Positions 1 to 19,127 of a DNA stretch of 64,000 nt are shown here, one piece after another. The notes below the pieces were generated by a model. That model did not search any database, was not told the DNA's origin, and saw only the letters and a list, made by a program, of their open reading frames with translations. The position numbers and the translations under genes are program-made. The first letter of the stretch is position 1. Each line of letters begins with the position of its first letter. Origin of the DNA: a virus (lineage: Duplodnaviria; Caudoviricetes); IMG/VR virus record IMGVR_UViG_3300034279_001754, positions 1-64,000 of that record; one strand, 5' to 3'.

Positions 1-193
1 CGGAAAGCTTCGATTGCTCCCGGTGTGGTTCCGGGGGGATAGTTGTAGGCCAATGGTTTAGTCATTGCGGTATGTGAATATGGGTGATGAATCATTTTGT
101 AGTTGGGTGTCGGATGTTTTAGTGAATGGTTGTGGATGTCTGGGGGAGAACAATGGTGGGGGCATTAGTGTTCTATGAGCCTAGGAAGGATGT

Positions 194-562
194 TTATTGA
201 GAGTTTCGGCCCCCATCATTGGCCACTTGTTTGGTACGTCCGCAAACATAACCTTTTAGAAAGGCCACAAAGGATGAACCAATTGGCGTGTCTCCCATGA
301 CCACTGTTGCAATACGCCCCGTCGATACAGAATGTGTCCCCTCGATAGATGCTGTAAGATGAGCGGTATCATCCTCAGTCATTGGCCAAATGGCCAGGAA
401 GTCTCTTAAGGCGCCATTCCAGTATATCTTGTCGGTTGCTGTTAACGGGGGCATTAAGTGGTCTGGTTTGTCTTTTTCCATGGAAGGGTCAATAGTAGCG
501 AATGGGGCGGTGGACATATAAGGTGTTAGCAAGGCCAAGGATACCAAGTATGATGGCAACAA
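194..562 (-). CDS. hypothetical protein (true start possibly MEKDK near 481)
   Basis: Minus-strand ORF; no recognised motif. Confidence 0.45.
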   Translation of the reverse strand: MLPSYLVSLALLTPYMSTAPFATIDPSMEKDKPDHLMPPLTATDKIYWNGALRDFLAIWPMTEDDTAHLTASIEGTHSVSTGRIATVVMGDTPIGSSFVAFLKGYVCGRTKQVANDGGRNSQ

Positions 563-15576: not shown

Positions 15577-16047
15577 TCAGGAGTAATTTTCTGCCAAGTA
15601 TTCCGGGTCAAAGTCCCCTAGAGCATCATCAAAGGGTTCTTTGCACCCTGTATAGGCGTAGAGTTTGTCATTCATCACATACCAACTCACATTCAACATG
15701 TACCAAAAAGTCGCTTTGTGGCCATCATACCAGAAAAGACCCTCAGTATCACAATCGAGAGCCCAACGGGTGGTTTCATGCGGGACCGAATACCAGGTCA
15801 ACCAATGGTCGAAAATCATTCGAGTTAGTTGAATGGGGTTTGGCATGGTTCGGTCATTGTTGGTCATTTTACTTTCACCCATAGTCATTCTATAAGTAAG
15901 TGGATAGTTGCAGTTTATGTGACAGAAAAAGTCCCAGGAGGGTTGTTCGTCTTCATCGTAATAGCCAATAATTACAGCGTCATGCCACTCTTTTAAGCAA
16001 ACATGGAACCAGTATAACCCGTAGGAGAGTTTATCAAAGAAGTTCAT
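15577..16047 (-). CDS. hypothetical W/Y-rich protein
   Basis: ORF with repeated FW..LN-like segments. Confidence 0.6.
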   Translation of the reverse strand: MNFFDKLSYGLYWFHVCLKEWHDAVIIGYYDEDEQPSWDFFCHINCNYPLTYRMTMGESKMTNNDRTMPNPIQLTRMIFDHWLTWYSVPHETTRWALDCDTEGLFWYDGHKATFWYMLNVSWYVMNDKLYAYTGCKEPFDDALGDFDPEYLAENYS

Positions 16048-16192
16048 AGTTCCTCGTCAAATATCTTATCAGAAAAGTTTAGTGAACGCCAAAACCAATA
16101 TCCATCCCATGGCTCAGAAATAGTAGCTGGTAGTTTTTCATAGAGATGTGGAAACATTAAACATTCCCAATAAAAGTAAGAATATGACCAAG

Positions 16193-16504
16193 TCAGTCTA
16201 GATTTCCAAAGTATTTTAAGTCCGGTAACAGTTTTTCAAGTTCCCTAATAAGGTCCAAAATCTCGTCAACATAAACTACACTTTCTATAGAACCATACAC
16301 CATGGCGTAAAACTCGTCCATGTTAGAATCAGGGGGAAGTGAAGAAGAGTATTGGTCGATAAGTTTATTGAGTATATGAATTAAGACTTTCGGTTGTTGC
16401 AAATCCTTCTCCACATCCATATAGGAATAGAGAAATTGTTGTGCTTGTTTGGTTTTGGTGTTATGCATTTTCTTGTAAATTAATTTTATGGAAGGTTGAC
16501 TCAA
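16193..16504 (-). CDS. hypothetical protein
   Basis: Minus-strand ORF in gene array. Confidence 0.55.
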   Translation of the reverse strand: MSQPSIKLIYKKMHNTKTKQAQQFLYSYMDVEKDLQQPKVLIHILNKLIDQYSSSLPPDSNMDEFYAMVYGSIESVVYVDEILDLIRELEKLLPDLKYFGNLD

Positions 16505-16694
16505 AGATTATGTCCTCAGACATCTCCTTCGGTGAAGCGTACTCCAGAAAAACTAAGTAGCTATCTGTGGTGAAATCCTCGGATGGTATAATCTGATTAT
16601 AAGAGCAAACCTTTTTACGGGCTCGCATAAGTAGGATTTCATGCTTAGTTTCTTCATGCAACCAGAAATCATCCATATTGACATCAAGAGTCAT
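16461..16694 (-). CDS. hypothetical protein
   Basis: Minus-strand ORF in gene array. Confidence 0.55.
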   Translation of the reverse strand: MTLDVNMDDFWLHEETKHEILLMRARKKVCSYNQIIPSEDFTTDSYLVFLEYASPKEMSEDIIFESTFHKINLQENA

Positions 16695-16914
16695 ATAAAT
16701 CCCAGAGATTTTCCCGAAGGGTGCGTTCGAAATCAGGGTCCAGTTTCTTTTGGTTTTCGAGCAAGTTTAGTACCAGTGCCTCAACCACTTCACTACCTAA
16801 TCCTGAGGTGGTTCCATGTTCTATGACCCTTTCTTGGGCCATCAATTCGCAATCTTCCAGCAGACCGTCATCACTAAGGAAATCATCAAAGTTTCCACCC
16901 ATATGGCAAGTCAT
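16684..16914 (-). CDS. hypothetical protein
   Basis: ATGA-coupled to the upstream gene; HMGGNFDDFL motif. Confidence 0.6.
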   Translation of the reverse strand: MTCHMGGNFDDFLSDDGLLEDCELMAQERVIEHGTTSGLGSEVVEALVLNLLENQKKLDPDFERTLRENLWDLYDS

Positions 16915-18011
16915 GGCTGCACCCTCCGAAACCCAATAACCCACACCCAAGGATTCGCGTCCCATGACCCTTCACCATTTATGGATTCCCAGAGCCTGGC
17001 ATACACACTAGCCAAGCAATCGCCGGACAACATGCTACCGGATGAGCAACCCTCAGCTAAGGCATCCGCATCGCTAATTGCATTCAGTCGCTCCACCCGA
17101 ATATCAGTAACCTCCAACAAGATGCGGCTGGCCCAGCGGGGCATAAAGATAGATTGGCGGCAACGAAAGACACCTACACCGAAAGGACTTTTGAGATCGG
17201 CGCGATACAGCACTGGGGGCGCTTGCGACGGCCGGCCCCGGTGGTAGGTCCATTCGTCGCAGTGTCCGTCAGCCTGGCCCCATGTTTCTCGCACCCATAG
17301 TCGCTGCCTTACTCGGAATGGGCAATTGAGTACACGGACGACTGAGAGAGACCGAGAATCCGCGCTGCCGACCGTTGACTGCACAGCCCTTTCAACAGCG
17401 CCCATTTGAGATGCGCACGTTCCTCGTCCGTCAGCTTGGCGCTGTGATGCTTCTCGCCGAGCGCCACGCGACCATGGTCCCGCCTGTCCTGCCAGTTCTC
17501 CTCTTGGGTCCCCCAAGCAAGATTTGTTGGCACGTTGTTCTGTGGGTTCCCGTCGAGGTGGCGCACCTGATGGGTCTTGCTTGGCGCCTCCCCGTGGAAT
17601 GCCGAGCAGATCAGACGGTGGACACTCCGAGTCACCTTGACGTTGTTGTGACTCATTGAAATTGAGCGATATCCCTTTATTGTCACATGCCCAGACAACG
17701 GATACCAATCCACGCGTTCCTTTCTGCCAAAGCCTGCGTACTTTGTGCAGGAGTAGATCATCCCATCCGAACCTGCTCGGTAATCCTCGTTCGGCGATTC
17801 GGGGATCAATCGCAACTCTATGCCACTGGCCAGCATGATTAATTTCATAGATAGTCCTGCTATGGTCATCCTCTAGTTTATCGTCTCGGATGCGGCAGGG
17901 CAAACCCTTCACCACCCTCCGCGTCTGCGTTTTCCGGCCCTCAAGAATGGCGCGAACCATTTCGCCCTTGAATAGGATGGGCCTTTCTTTTGTTTTAATT
18001 TGGGTTGTCAT
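16911..18011 (-). CDS. ASCH-like phage protein (KERPILF family) containing an overprinted insertion
   Basis: KERPILFKGEMVRAILEGRKTQTRR, RLWVRETW, SIFMPRWASRILLEVTDIRVERL and NPWVWVI; frame open throughout. Confidence 0.85.
   Translation of the reverse strand: MTTQIKTKERPILFKGEMVRAILEGRKTQTRRVVKGLPCRIRDDKLEDDHSRTIYEINHAGQWHRVAIDPRIAERGLPSRFGWDDLLLHKVRRLWQKGTRGLVSVVWACDNKGISLNFNESQQRQGDSECPPSDLLGIPRGGAKQDPSGAPPRREPTEQRANKSCLGDPRGELAGQAGPWSRGARREASQRQADGRGTCASQMGAVERAVQSTVGSADSRSLSVVRVLNCPFRVRQRLWVRETWGQADGHCDEWTYHRGRPSQAPPVLYRADLKSPFGVGVFRCRQSIFMPRWASRILLEVTDIRVERLNAISDADALAEGCSSGSMLSGDCLASVYARLWESINGEGSWDANPWVWVIGFRRVQP
17309..17848 (-). CDS. HNH homing endonuclease nested in a different frame of the ASCH-like gene
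   Basis: VHRLICSAFHG, VRHLDGNPQNN..NLAWGTQEEN, GEKHHSAKLT and a C-terminal HTH. Confidence 0.9.
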   Translation of the reverse strand: MKLIMLASGIELRLIPESPNEDYRAGSDGMIYSCTKYAGFGRKERVDWYPLSGHVTIKGYRSISMSHNNVKVTRSVHRLICSAFHGEAPSKTHQVRHLDGNPQNNVPTNLAWGTQEENWQDRRDHGRVALGEKHHSAKLTDEERAHLKWALLKGLCSQRSAARILGLSQSSVYSIAHSE

Positions 18012-18069
18012 AGCGGGTTGGTTGGTTGGTCGTATTTGGTACCATAGGGTCAATTATTGCAGATGGAAT

Positions 18070-18342
18070 CTACCCGCCCCCAAACAACAAAGCTTCACAT
18101 ACTGGCATGGTTCGGTACCCAGTTATGAATCCTTTTGTCGTGTACTTTTTGACGTATTCAAGCATCCAACTCATGGCTTCTTCCTGAGAGTTGAAGGGCC
18201 CAAAATTCCTATAAAAGCGTTTAGGTGACCCAACATAAGATGTAATTATGTACCGGTGAGAGTGCTTCGGGTAGCTATCATTTTCTGAGACCCATTGAAG
18301 GTAGTCATTTTTTCCTGTACGATGGTCAATGTGCGTCATCAT
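18070..18342 (-). CDS. hypothetical protein
   Basis: ORF; probable start MMTHID. Confidence 0.55.
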   Translation of the reverse strand: MMTHIDHRTGKNDYLQWVSENDSYPKHSHRYIITSYVGSPKRFYRNFGPFNSQEEAMSWMLEYVKKYTTKGFITGYRTMPVCEALLFGGG

Positions 18343-18504
18343 TTTTGTTGTTTGTACTCGCAGCATCCAGCAATGACTCCACCCGAATCAATCGATTAGA
18401 AATGTTAAGCAGAATGTCCGTCAAACCTTCAATCTCCTCATGAATGTCTTGGTGGTGGAATCGTAATGGCTTTTGAATTAGCTTGTTGAATTTGGATTTT
18501 TTCA
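18326..18504 (-). CDS. hypothetical protein
   Basis: MKKSKFNKLIQKPLRFHHQDIHEE; cyanophage-like small gene. Confidence 0.55.
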
Positions 18505-18533
18505 TCGTGGCGTAGTAATAAGGATTGTGACAA

Positions 18534-19127
18534 TCATGCGTAGATATACTCACGCCATTCCTCAACTTCAGCCATGCTGATAGTCACTGTGATTTTATTG
18601 AAGGGGGCTTTAGGGTTCCCTGCCAAGGTGGTCCCACGGCTATTTACTCTGGCATCCATCATACCGACTTGAAAACTATCCCAAGTGAATGGCAATGGCG
18701 CAACATTCGTGGTTTCCTTAGCAAATACCTTCTTCAAGGCCATAGCCCATTCTTCTGGGGTACGATTATCCTTGCAATTGTTGCATTCCAGGCAGCTAGT
18801 AACGAGATTTTGCCAAGTATCTTGGCCACCTCGGGACTTTGGAATTACGTGGTCGATTGTAAGGTTTGGACCGGAATACCCACAATATTGGCAAACATGC
18901 CTATCTCTCTTCAGGATCAAGGAACGGGAGGGTTTCCCGGCAAAGAGTTTAGATTGGGGGACTTTGACATAGTGCTTTAGGCGGATAGTACGCTTGGACA
19001 CAACGTGCGCTTTATTTTTCAGCACCAAAATAGTCGCCCTCTTCCAACTCAACATCGTTAAAGGTTGGTAAGTAGCATTGAGTAATAAAATAGTCGAACC
19101 AACTTTGACAGGGATTTCTTTAGGCAT
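18534..19127 (-). CDS. HNH endonuclease (McrA-like)
   Basis: LLLNATYQPL, RDRHVCQYCG, TIDHVIPKSRGG..TWQNLVTSCLECNNCK. Confidence 0.9.
   Translation of the reverse strand: MPKEIPVKVGSTILLLNATYQPLTMLSWKRATILVLKNKAHVVSKRTIRLKHYVKVPQSKLFAGKPSRSLILKRDRHVCQYCGYSGPNLTIDHVIPKSRGGQDTWQNLVTSCLECNNCKDNRTPEEWAMALKKVFAKETTNVAPLPFTWDSFQVGMMDARVNSRGTTLAGNPKAPFNKITVTISMAEVEEWREYIYA

Follow-up and report, generated by a model that had tools for sequence, protein, structure and literature searches.

A complete gene for an HNH homing endonuclease lies nested, in another frame of the same strand, within a gene for an ASCH-fold protein whose own frame stays open across the insertion. We consider it highly probable that the nested gene is a mobile homing element that uses neither an intron nor an intein and through which the host frame is read. 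Directly observed are the anatomy of the locus, selection on the openness of the frame, the predicted fold of the host protein and the uncoupled history of HNH and host gene. In the mechanism that we propose, an I-HmuI-like HNH gene would have inserted into the hypervariable linker of the ASCH-fold gene, between ...TQTRR and CP[YFW]..RLWVRETW, and the element would be built to exclude stops from the frame that lies one base upstream of that of HNH. Since that frame lacks stops, ribosomes starting at the host ATG would read straight through, giving a full-length ASCH protein with a mostly disordered loop of ~190 residues, and this loop-bearing protein may remain functional. For the endonuclease, ribosomes would initiate internally on this same mRNA, at a Shine-Dalgarno site and ATG that belong to the HNH gene. 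The enzyme would cleave empty alleles, and recombinational repair would spread the element, dragging flanking host sequence along.

Anatomy of the nested HNH gene

All coordinates refer to the window, that is, the whole stretch of 64,000 nucleotides that was analysed. The locus comprises the following features:

16911..18011, minus strand: host gene for a phrog_874-family protein with an ASCH fold; 366 aa when started at the ATG at 18011
17901..18011, minus strand: N-terminal ASCH segment (TTQIKTKERPILF...TQTRRVVKGL), phrog_874 profile positions 49-95
17849..17900, minus strand: 5' part of the insert, all of it upstream of the Shine-Dalgarno-backed start at 17848 and most of it upstream of the ATG at 17869
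17309..17869, minus strand: ORF of the I-HmuI-like HNH homing endonuclease, offset +1 from the host frame; the ATG at 17869 gives 186 aa
17697..17753, minus strand: stretch of the overlap with extra host-frame conservation, host residues 101-119, LLLHKVRRLWQKGTRGLVS
17495..17560, minus strand: HNH catalytic core (RHLDGNPQNNVPTNLAWGTQEEN), HNH residues 104-125
17324..17422, minus strand: helix-turn-helix module at the C-terminus of the HNH protein, about residues 150-182
17316..17324, minus strand: CPF motif in the host frame, equivalent to CPYG of insertion-free homologs (alignments A1 and A2)
16911..17308, minus strand: C-terminal ASCH segment (RQRLWVRETW...NPWVWVIGFRRVQP and the stop), phrog_874 positions 126-258, E 5.6e-47
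17160..17911, minus strand: tract without nucleotide similarity to the insertion-free syntenic relative L002 (blastn of the window against L002)

In the ORF list the host frame appears as a 380-aa ORF at 16911..18053 on the minus strand, the open frame extending upstream to a TTG at 18053; the likely start is the ATG at 18011, which matches the starts of the homologs P0002 and P0007. The host protein begins with KERPILFKGEMVRAILEGRKTQTRR, and its C-terminal part runs from RLWVRETW to NPWVWVIGFRRVQP. Both halves match the phrog_874 profile (positions 49-95 and 115-258), a family that carries the name 'morphogenetic protein' in some NCBI records. Insertion-free homologs of 196-220 aa connect the same two halves through a linker of only 25-45 aa, so that the insert of about 190 codons is real. 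At the 3' junction, the bases of the host CPF motif double as the last codons of the HNH ORF, and host-frame constraint at residues 245-246 reaches z values of -12 and -6.7. A blastn search of the stretch against cultured phages returned short matches only, of ~100 nt, to ASCH genes.

The HNH ORF ends with a TAA at 17309-17311, two codons before RLWVRETW. Initiation at the Shine-Dalgarno-backed ATG at 17848 would give a protein of 179 aa, identical in extent to the called protein P0266. The ORF matches Pfam HNH_3 with 53.5 bits (cut-off 24.8, E 1.9e-14) over HNH residues 83-125 and phrog_59 with 8.6e-32, in line with the original prediction of a complete HNH protein inside an ASCH-like gene. 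Asp106, Gly107, Asn111, Asn116 and Asn125 are invariant and His104 is at least 90% conserved (alignment A3); we take these residues to have catalytic roles. In an AF2 model of the HNH protein (mean pLDDT 86.5), helices are present at 148-183, where Pfam HTH_28 scores 18.8 bits on the C-terminus, below its cut-off of 25. A profile search with PDB 1U3E (I-HmuI) gave E 1.9e-12 over 127 positions, the alignment reaching profile position 177, and Foldseek aligned the AF2 model to I-HmuI with E 3.6e-7 over 180 columns (TM 0.49-0.52). The HNH protein matches I-HmuI in overall fold and in module order: N-terminal strands, HNH and C-terminal helix-turn-helix.

The 5' part of the insert contains a Shine-Dalgarno-like AGGA at 17855-17858 and, read in the host frame, CRIRDDKL, a diverged version of the YxLTDDRI motif of the long forms (alignments A2 and A4). 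Among related loci, 46 of 66 place a Shine-Dalgarno-like motif 4-12 nt 5' of a start codon that closely precedes the conserved HNH core, compared with a rate of 22.5% at internal in-frame start codons. The remaining 20 of the 66 have no such motif, and the AGGA of the locus studied here is weak.

Selection on the open host frame

Across the HNH ORF the host frame contains no stop, as originally predicted for the insert, versus 14 stops in the third frame of the same strand; each antisense frame has 4-7. When the HNH codons were permuted synonymously, 17 of 20,000 shuffles retained an open host frame, the commonest outcome being 5-6 stops; shuffling the codon order retained it in a single one of 20,000. 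To extend the comparison, related loci were gathered by HNH peptide patterns only, a procedure that is blind to the host frame. The resulting sample comprises 78 distinct loci with an HNH identity of at least 53%, which are related to one another and not independent. In 75 of the 78 the host frame is stop-free across HNH, against an expected 0.44 loci (summed per-locus permutation chance); the expectation that related HNH genes keep this frame open more often than shuffled controls is borne out. The permutations predict about 1.8-9.5 stops in the host frame per locus, and the other alternative frame, with 2-16 stops (median 8), is never open in the 78 loci. Host-frame stops occur in three of the 78. 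In L097 the N part lies in another frame. Where both ASCH halves were detected, they form one ORF with the insert in 60 of 62 loci.

Natural controls behave differently from the nested copies. Two members of the same HNH clade that reside outside an ASCH gene, L155 and L181, have 11 and 9 stops in the corresponding frame, L100, whose ASCH gene is truly split, has 25, and distant HNHs have 3-7. Conversely, L096 and L131 carry a stop in the HNH frame, yet their host frame is open. At four-fold sites the HNH codons vary almost freely (mean 1.63 bits), and host-frame openness is therefore not simply inherited. The GC content of the HNH genes ranges from 0.41 to 0.65 across the related loci; we rejected high GC as the cause of the open frame, because loci at GC 0.42-0.50 are open as well, although 7-9 stops are expected there. 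A frameshift or assembly error behind the two frames was likewise rejected, the same frame relation recurring in 71 of the 78 distinct loci. On these sequence comparisons, the open host frame across HNH is kept by selection and not by chance, a selection that is measurable because many diverged copies exist.

Predicted fate of the insert in the host protein

The AF2 model of the host-frame protein, built with 74 sequences, shows pLDDT values above 90 at residues 21-50 and across the bulk of 241-380, whereas most of 62-238 stays below 50. Block means from residue 241 onwards are 84-96, with dips to 60-74 in blocks 261-280 and 291-300. Structural comparison by VIA-align matched the model to E. 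coli YqfB with Z 11.9 and rmsd 2.2 over 101 aligned residues (chain of 102 aa; model range 22..378). Further ASCH proteins followed, namely L. crispatus ASCH (Z 10.7), PH0355 (Z 10.7) and EF3133 (Z 10.2), with ranges that cover both halves, and the top Foldseek matches are the same proteins. At the level of sequence families, Pfam assigned no family to the 380-aa host-frame protein at E<=0.1, including no ASCH, intein or Hint, and no ASCH family to the separate halves at E<=10; the only match listed for them was Rbx_binding (E 0.17), below its cut-off. The designation 'ASCH-like' of the original prediction holds for the fold, but has no counterpart in a Pfam ASCH match. In the model, the two ASCH halves form one ASCH fold from which the insert emerges as a low-confidence loop. 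The low pLDDT of the insert is compatible with a tolerated loop, though no proof of tolerance, and the insert is probably translated as a floppy loop rather than spliced out.

Part of this loop appears to be constrained. In a test whose baseline is the conservation predicted from HNH coding together with stop avoidance, the sliding mean z drops to -5.3 in 17697..17753, compared with about -1 elsewhere in the overlap. The codon of HNH Val53 is GTG in 53 of 54 sequences, which yields Gly115 in the host frame (z -20). Hence the loop suggested originally finds support in the model, but the notion that it is junk throughout does not, as a short stretch seems to be constrained in the host frame; the constraint could instead reflect an RNA or DNA signal.

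The overlap might even be truly dual-coding, in that the host-frame YxLTDDRI hairpin and LW..G.RGLVS form a selected peptide, carried by the element, that aids folding of the host protein around the insertion or adds function; the element would then amount to more than a loop that the host passively tolerates. Host residues 101-119 are conserved beyond the requirements of HNH coding and stop avoidance, and codon choice is biased at individual positions (Lys50 AAG in 55 of 58, Tyr52 TAC in 37 of 38, Phe47 TTT in 42 of 58, giving host Trp109), whereas sites at which either synonymous choice encodes the same host residue, such as Asp54 (host Leu), vary freely. Furthermore, YxLTDDRI lies upstream of the Shine-Dalgarno-backed HNH start, and in the loci inspected its residues are kept while third codon positions differ. 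The AF2 model has a helix at 95-110 and short strands at 53-62 and 118-131, but with pLDDT of only about 40-57 in these elements. The test of this region gives a modest result (Mann-Whitney P 0.019), the larger part of the overlap is free of constraint (mean z about -1), and a nucleotide-level signal would produce the same pattern. We regard dual coding as possible but doubtful; it refines the read-through explanation and does not replace it.

Other explanations dispense with the continuous protein. The N-terminal 50-60 and the C-terminal 130 residues might be made separately and then assemble, the open frame being incidental or otherwise used. Such a split gene is evidently viable in L100, where separate N and C ORFs each end or start beside a free-standing HNH, C-terminal-only proteins (P0001 and P0004) are called on related contigs, and a GTG at Val254 could act as a start. 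However, P0001 stems from a 1023-nt contig and is maybe truncated, the window and 60 of 62 relatives have a single ORF, and the split layout is confined to L100 with its 25 stops in the corresponding frame. As this explanation also leaves ~180 stop-free codons in 75 of 78 loci unaccounted for, we consider it improbable. Removal of the insert from the mRNA as a self-splicing intron, of group I or an unrecognized type, that carries the HNH ORF is suggested by the closest solved relative, I-HmuI, which lies in a group I intron. HNH genes are moreover common in phage group I introns (PMC11855218). Yet Rfam gave no match at E<=10 for positions 16000-19000 of the window and no intron family at E<=1 in 20 related loci, although ORF-bearing or atypical introns can escape its models, as would an unknown ribozyme. 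Within the insert, only about 40-60 nt 5' and none 3' lie outside the HNH ORF. An excised intron needs no open exon frame, nor would an intron be expected to maintain one for about 180 codons in copies that have diverged; splicing is consequently disfavoured, and we judge it very unlikely.

Ribosomal bypass of the T4 gene 60 type combines a take-off codon directly followed by an in-frame stop with a short gap that is left untranslated. That bypass element is linked to a homing endonuclease cassette, and a frameshift to an ASCH-N::HNH fusion, the related option, is conceivable in view of Aeromonas phage ST4, in which HNH is in frame with an ASCH gene. Here, however, the gap would measure about 575 nt instead of the 50 nt of gene 60, no in-frame stop exists anywhere in the insert to trigger take-off, and frameshifting is unneeded, since most HNH copies have their own Shine-Dalgarno motif and ATG. 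Bypass, which the original prediction had offered beside the loop, is not supported, given that a gap to be bypassed could do without an open frame, and we give either variant next to no credence. Direct read-through of the host frame remains our preferred explanation.

Signs of mobility and relation to known elements

Pairwise identities of HNH and of the C-terminal ASCH segment are uncorrelated (Spearman 0.008, 1710 pairs); for instance, L123 and L132 share 96% identity in HNH but only 53% in ASCH-C. Relative to L002, the flanks of the dissimilar tract are 83% identical in nucleotides over 17912-18028 and 86% from 17159 downward. The positions 17160-17308 represent ~150 nt of putatively replaced host sequence 3' of the element, a candidate co-conversion tract. 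A metagenome contig (run X5) shares 17112-17994 with 18 differing letters, its flanks being replaced or more diverged. The insert has a GC content of 0.51-0.63, versus 0.35-0.46 in nearby genes, most ASCH homologs are without it and its distribution is patchy. The uncoupled divergence of HNH and host gene and the replaced tract, both read from sequence, fit homing. As to an empty allele, no contig joined across the insert in four partly matching DNA sequencing runs, and contigs can miss variants. A search of sequencing runs listed no RNA run that contains the stretch.

I-HmuI (Bacillus phage SPO1) shares with the nested protein an HNH core followed by a helix-turn-helix tail, but identity is about 22%, and in our case the gene shares its bases with host coding sequence and shows no detectable intron. 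Inteins with a homing endonuclease are similarly mobile elements in protein-coding genes that leave the host frame open and use host translation; they differ in that their endonuclease shares the host frame and the element excises itself through protein splicing, whereas here the nuclease is out of frame and the insert presumably stays in the protein. Free-standing endonucleases can also leave genes in pieces, as in Aeromonas phage Aeh1, whose nrdA is split by mobE, and in T4 with gene 39/60, mobA and the 50-nt bypass. There, too, a homing endonuclease gene interrupts a phage gene with no intron involved, and the host function is believed to persist, but through separate ORFs or a hop, in contrast to the one ORF found here, L100 being the only relative found split. 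Among cultured phages, the best tblastn match of HNH among those listed is to Aeromonas phage ST4 (41.6% identity), and none of these is close. ST4 gp051 (OR261032.1, 30983-32089) is one annotated 'hypothetical protein' in which ASCH N and C parts flank a related HNH_3 and helix-turn-helix module; in contrast to our locus, the HNH is read in the same frame as the ASCH parts, and no WVRETW segment is present. ST4 gp051 is a fusion protein and not an overlap.

The nearest precedent is the ShiLan domain, a 'hidden' out-of-frame HNH insertion in actinophage DNA methylases (Arsenault, Gosselin and Gogarten 2025, PMC11855218). There too, an HNH gene on the same strand but in a different frame lies within an insertion in a phage gene that codes for a protein; the host frame is stop-free, signatures of an intron or intein are absent, and the HNH stop coincides with the end of the insert. 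Read in the host frame, that insert is predicted to form a loop; its occurrence is patchy in a manner that resembles homing, and the HNH is I-HmuI-like (PMC11855218). The two systems differ in host (methylase there, ASCH-fold here), in HNH frame (third there, second relative to the host here) and in initiation, for which the ShiLan authors detected no ribosome-binding site and proposed a leaderless GTG, in contrast to a Shine-Dalgarno motif and ATG in most copies here. They also differ in distribution (mycobacteriophages as opposed to environmental phages and MAG contigs of many phyla) and in testing: for the 78 loci analysed here, frame openness was compared with shuffles and natural controls, and the portions of the ShiLan report considered here present no such test (PMC11855218). 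The splice-free invasion by an HNH gene that was originally predicted is supported, but the idea is not new, the ShiLan element being of the same kind (PMC11855218). The papers listed by our literature search include no description of an HNH nested in an ASCH gene, although the survey accompanying the ShiLan report might include ASCH-like hosts (PMC11855218). The family described here is a second, much larger one of the published ShiLan kind, with measurable selection on frame openness.

With respect to annotation, gene callers report either the long ORF that contains the shadow or the HNH, rarely both, and ~100 of the best 150 database matches are long proteins whose middle third is the shadow of an HNH gene. 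Homing endonuclease genes have been thought to enter useful or essential genes only together with an intron or intein, and otherwise to sit between genes. A third way was put forward in the 2025 ShiLan report, namely out-of-frame insertion that leaves the host frame open (PMC11855218). Our results imply that this third way is no oddity of one mycobacteriophage methylase, but that a separate, widespread family uses out-of-frame insertion. We tentatively suggest, while leaning against it at present, that the element is a splice-free counterpart of an intein that carries a host-frame 'adapter' peptide (the YxLTDDRI hairpin and LW..G.RGLVS, HNH codons 39-57). If so, the adapter would let the invaded protein fold around a 190-residue loop, and one stretch of DNA would be under purifying selection in two frames for two beneficiaries, the element and its host.

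An HNH gene nested in an ASCH-fold gene

The window comes from an IMG/VR virus record of 134 kb, and runs labelled lake water and freshwater metagenomes contain the stretch. Two overlapping ORFs make up the locus:

16911..18053, minus strand: outer (host) ORF, 380 aa (ORF listing)
17309..17869, minus strand: inner HNH ORF, 186 aa, within the outer ORF at an offset of +1 (ORF listing and frame check)

The inner ORF can be identified firmly as an HNH. It matches Pfam HNH_3 (53.5 bits, cut-off 24.8) and phrog_59 (8.6e-32), a profile from 20 of its homologues finds I-HmuI (PDB 1U3E) with an E value of 1.9e-12, and its AF2 model (mean pLDDT 86.5) is matched to I-HmuI by Foldseek (E 3.6e-7), all in agreement with the HNH protein originally predicted in another frame of the same strand. 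The phrog_874 profile aligns to the outer ORF as two separate pieces: residues 5-51 correspond to profile positions 49-95, and residues 240-379 to positions 115-258. In insertion-free homologues of 196-220 aa, which number in the thousands, these pieces are joined by a 25-45-residue linker (one such junction reads TQTRRIAKEFDGFQNMDKLLARFPNQEGCPYGKPGDRLWVRETW); some carry the NCBI names 'morphogenetic protein' or 'ASCH domain-containing protein'. In the alignment, homologues begin at ATG 18011, the start predicted for the host gene. Pfam does not recognise the host protein; both halves of its AF2 model can be aligned with ASCH proteins, and the label 'ASCH-like' is therefore correct at the level of fold. 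Of the ASCH proteins, E. coli YqfB scores highest (Z 11.9, rmsd 2.2, 101 residues of the 102-residue chain; model range 22..378). Two genes upstream lies a second, unrelated and free-standing HNH-type ORF (18534-19127, minus strand, 197 aa), recognised by eye from the motifs CQYCG...DHVIPKSRGG...N.

Openness of the host frame

A nested HNH gene with an open host frame is confirmed in the window: stop counts over the HNH ORF are 0 in the host frame, 14 in the third same-strand frame and 4-7 in each antisense frame. Synonymous permutation, which swaps synonymous codons among HNH positions and preserves protein and codon usage, left the host frame stop-free in 17/20000 trials (commonest outcome 5-6 stops), and shuffling of codon order in 1/20000, so openness is not expected by chance. 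The codon before each of the 44 HNH codons starting AA, AG or GA (44/44) has G, C or A as its last base, never T; T-ending codons amount to 31/187 in the gene overall.

A phmmer search with the 380-aa host protein against 1.8 billion cluster representatives returned, among its best 150 matches, ~100 of 308-435 aa; most align in one stretch including the supposedly junk middle, at roughly 30-48% identity. The host-frame pattern GR...EQ...KS.VG...GELDG arises as a shadow of the HNH motif, DGN..NN...NL.W.T..EN, read in the shifted frame. Homologues in the HNH frame are much closer (61-71% identity), which points to this frame as the strongly selected one. Many database proteins of 308-435 aa (P0121-P0204) have such a shadow as their middle third, and in entries of this type the nuclease is masked, gene callers having chosen the long ORF.

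Because database proteins are biased toward open frames, DNA loci were sought in viral contigs, species-representative genomes and metagenome contigs with HNH peptide patterns as the sole criterion. This recovered 110 loci, 78 of them distinct and at least 53% identical in the HNH. The host frame is stop-free across the HNH match in 75/78, where per-locus synonymous permutation yields 1.8-9.5 expected stops and openness probabilities summing to 0.44 loci; related insertions thus keep the frame open, in line with the original prediction. The other alternative frame contains 2-16 stops (median 8) and is open in 0/78. The host-gene part after the insert (ASCH C) continues in the host frame in 71/78 loci, and a single ORF runs through both halves and the insert in 60 of the 62 loci with both halves detected. 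Base composition as the reason for the open frame is ruled out, because GC across the 78 loci ranges from 0.41 to 0.65. This comparative evidence, new here, supports selection on the open host frame.

Several loci depart from this layout. The same HNH (62-65% identity) lies outside any ASCH gene in L155 and L181, with 11 and 9 stops in the corresponding frame. In L100 (1244-2485) a free-standing copy truly splits the ASCH gene into N and C ORFs, and the frame open elsewhere has 25 stops. The part before the insert (ASCH N) is in a different frame in L097. Two loci undetected by tblastn queries were assigned by eye: in L091 (1317-2936) a divergent ASCH gene contains the nested HNH and has a zinc-ribbon-like CxxC...CxxC insert in its N-terminal part (ORF >541 aa), and in L095 just the final residues of the ASCH C-terminus remain. 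The HNH match regions of L096 and L131 have one internal stop in the HNH frame and an open host frame; they have the appearance of decaying nucleases within an intact host gene, suggesting that host-frame selection persists during nuclease decay. Beside another nested locus, a Y RNA-like (YrlA) match (L094:412-517, minus strand) scores 42.7 bits, short of the gathering threshold of 69, and overlaps with a weak tRNA match.

The predicted loop and probable expression route of the nuclease

In the AF2 model of the host protein (74 sequences), pLDDT is <50 for most of residues 62-238. The third base of conserved four-fold HNH codons is near-free (mean 1.63 bits; 22 columns, 59 loci), and T is absent or rare where it would make a host-frame stop. 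Observed host-frame residues were compared with a null in which synonymous codons were redrawn with stops forbidden; mean z over the overlap is about -1, close to neutrality, apart from two places. One is residues 245-246, a CP[FW] motif that is the counterpart of CPYG in insertion-free proteins; the last HNH codons therefore overlap genuine host sequence. The other is residues 101-119 (G115, W109, G112, R114, S118), where z reaches -20 at G115 and the V53 codon is GTG in 53/54 sequences. This suggests a short selected host-frame peptide (regional Mann-Whitney P 0.019, modest) and hints at a small dual-coding stretch within the overlap, although a nucleotide-level signal may instead underlie the constraint. 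The original reading is supported in the form of a tolerated loop; the loop is mostly junk, with residues 101-119 as a possible exception.

In 46/66 loci a start codon (ATG, GTG or TTG) immediately 5' of the conserved HNH core is preceded at 4-12 nt by an SD-like motif (GGAG, GAGG or GGAGG in 26 of the 46), compared with 135/599 (22.5%) at internal in-frame start codons. In the window, AGGA at 17855-17858 precedes ATG 17848, where the called protein P0266 begins. Internal initiation is thus the likely route to the HNH.

Familiar systems for comparison are the I-HmuI intron and two phage genes associated with endonucleases, T4 gene 60 (mobA) and Aeh1 nrdA (mobE). A group I intron is unlikely at this locus because Rfam gives no match in 16000-19000 (E<=10) and no intron family in 20 related loci (E<=1), there is nearly no space outside the HNH ORF, and the exon frame would not need to stay open if an intron were excised. 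Against an intein speak the out-of-frame position of the nuclease and the lack of any Pfam Hint family in the host-frame protein; the original reading likewise saw no intein motifs and no flanking group I intron core. Ribosomal bypass, also proposed originally, is not supported, nor is frameshifting: either is unnecessary and leaves the open host frame unexplained. A host gene in two pieces exists in L100, yet cannot explain the other loci.

Mobility and related elements

The insert has a GC content of 0.51-0.63, versus 0.35-0.46 in neighbouring genes. The syntenic relative L002, which lacks the HNH, has no nucleotide similarity over 17160-17911; its nucleotide identity is 96% in the upstream region, 83% across the 5' end of the ASCH gene and 86% at 17159 and below. 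The replaced tract therefore extends ~150 nt into host sequence beyond the HNH stop on the 3' side, which would be expected from co-conversion. At the insertion place this closest insertion-free relative (2016-2828) has a different linker of ~100 residues (VAKMRVCGG...QPGDMLWVRETW), and the ASCH linker seems to be a general insertion hot spot. A contig from a lake-related run has 17112-17994 in common with the window (18 differing letters) between replaced or more diverged flanks. Pairwise HNH and ASCH-C identities are uncorrelated (Spearman 0.008; 59 nested loci, 1710 pairs); L123 and L132 share 96% and 53%, respectively. Among the best 80 ASCH loci in viral contigs, of which L002, L003 and L032 were checked, one (L003) has the HNH.

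Database protein P0005 joins the N-terminus of a homologue of the window's upstream gene (MLRVQTTKMMTHIDHRT...) to an ASCH C-terminal part, suggesting recombination or deletion in a relative:

18070-18366, minus strand: upstream gene, homologous to the P0005 N-terminus

The 'hypothetical protein' gp051 of the cultured Aeromonas phage ST4 (OR261032.1, 30983-32089; L192, 1210-2340) has a related HNH_3 and HTH module between ASCH N and C parts in the same frame, and the WVRETW segment is missing. Here the association that is out of frame in the window takes the form of an in-frame fusion.

In the ShiLan domain an HNH lies out of frame within an actinophage DNA methylase; the host frame is stop-free, there is no intron or intein signature, the insert is predicted as a loop and the history is homing-like (PMC11855218). 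The main text of that article, as far as consulted, does not mention ASCH; its supplements or repository may list further hosts. The window locus is of the same kind, but differs in its host gene (ASCH-fold, not methylase), relative frame and recognisable ribosome-binding site, and its family has far more diverged copies, which permits the selection test. This kind of element has been described recently, and what is added here is evidence for selection and a hint of dual coding.
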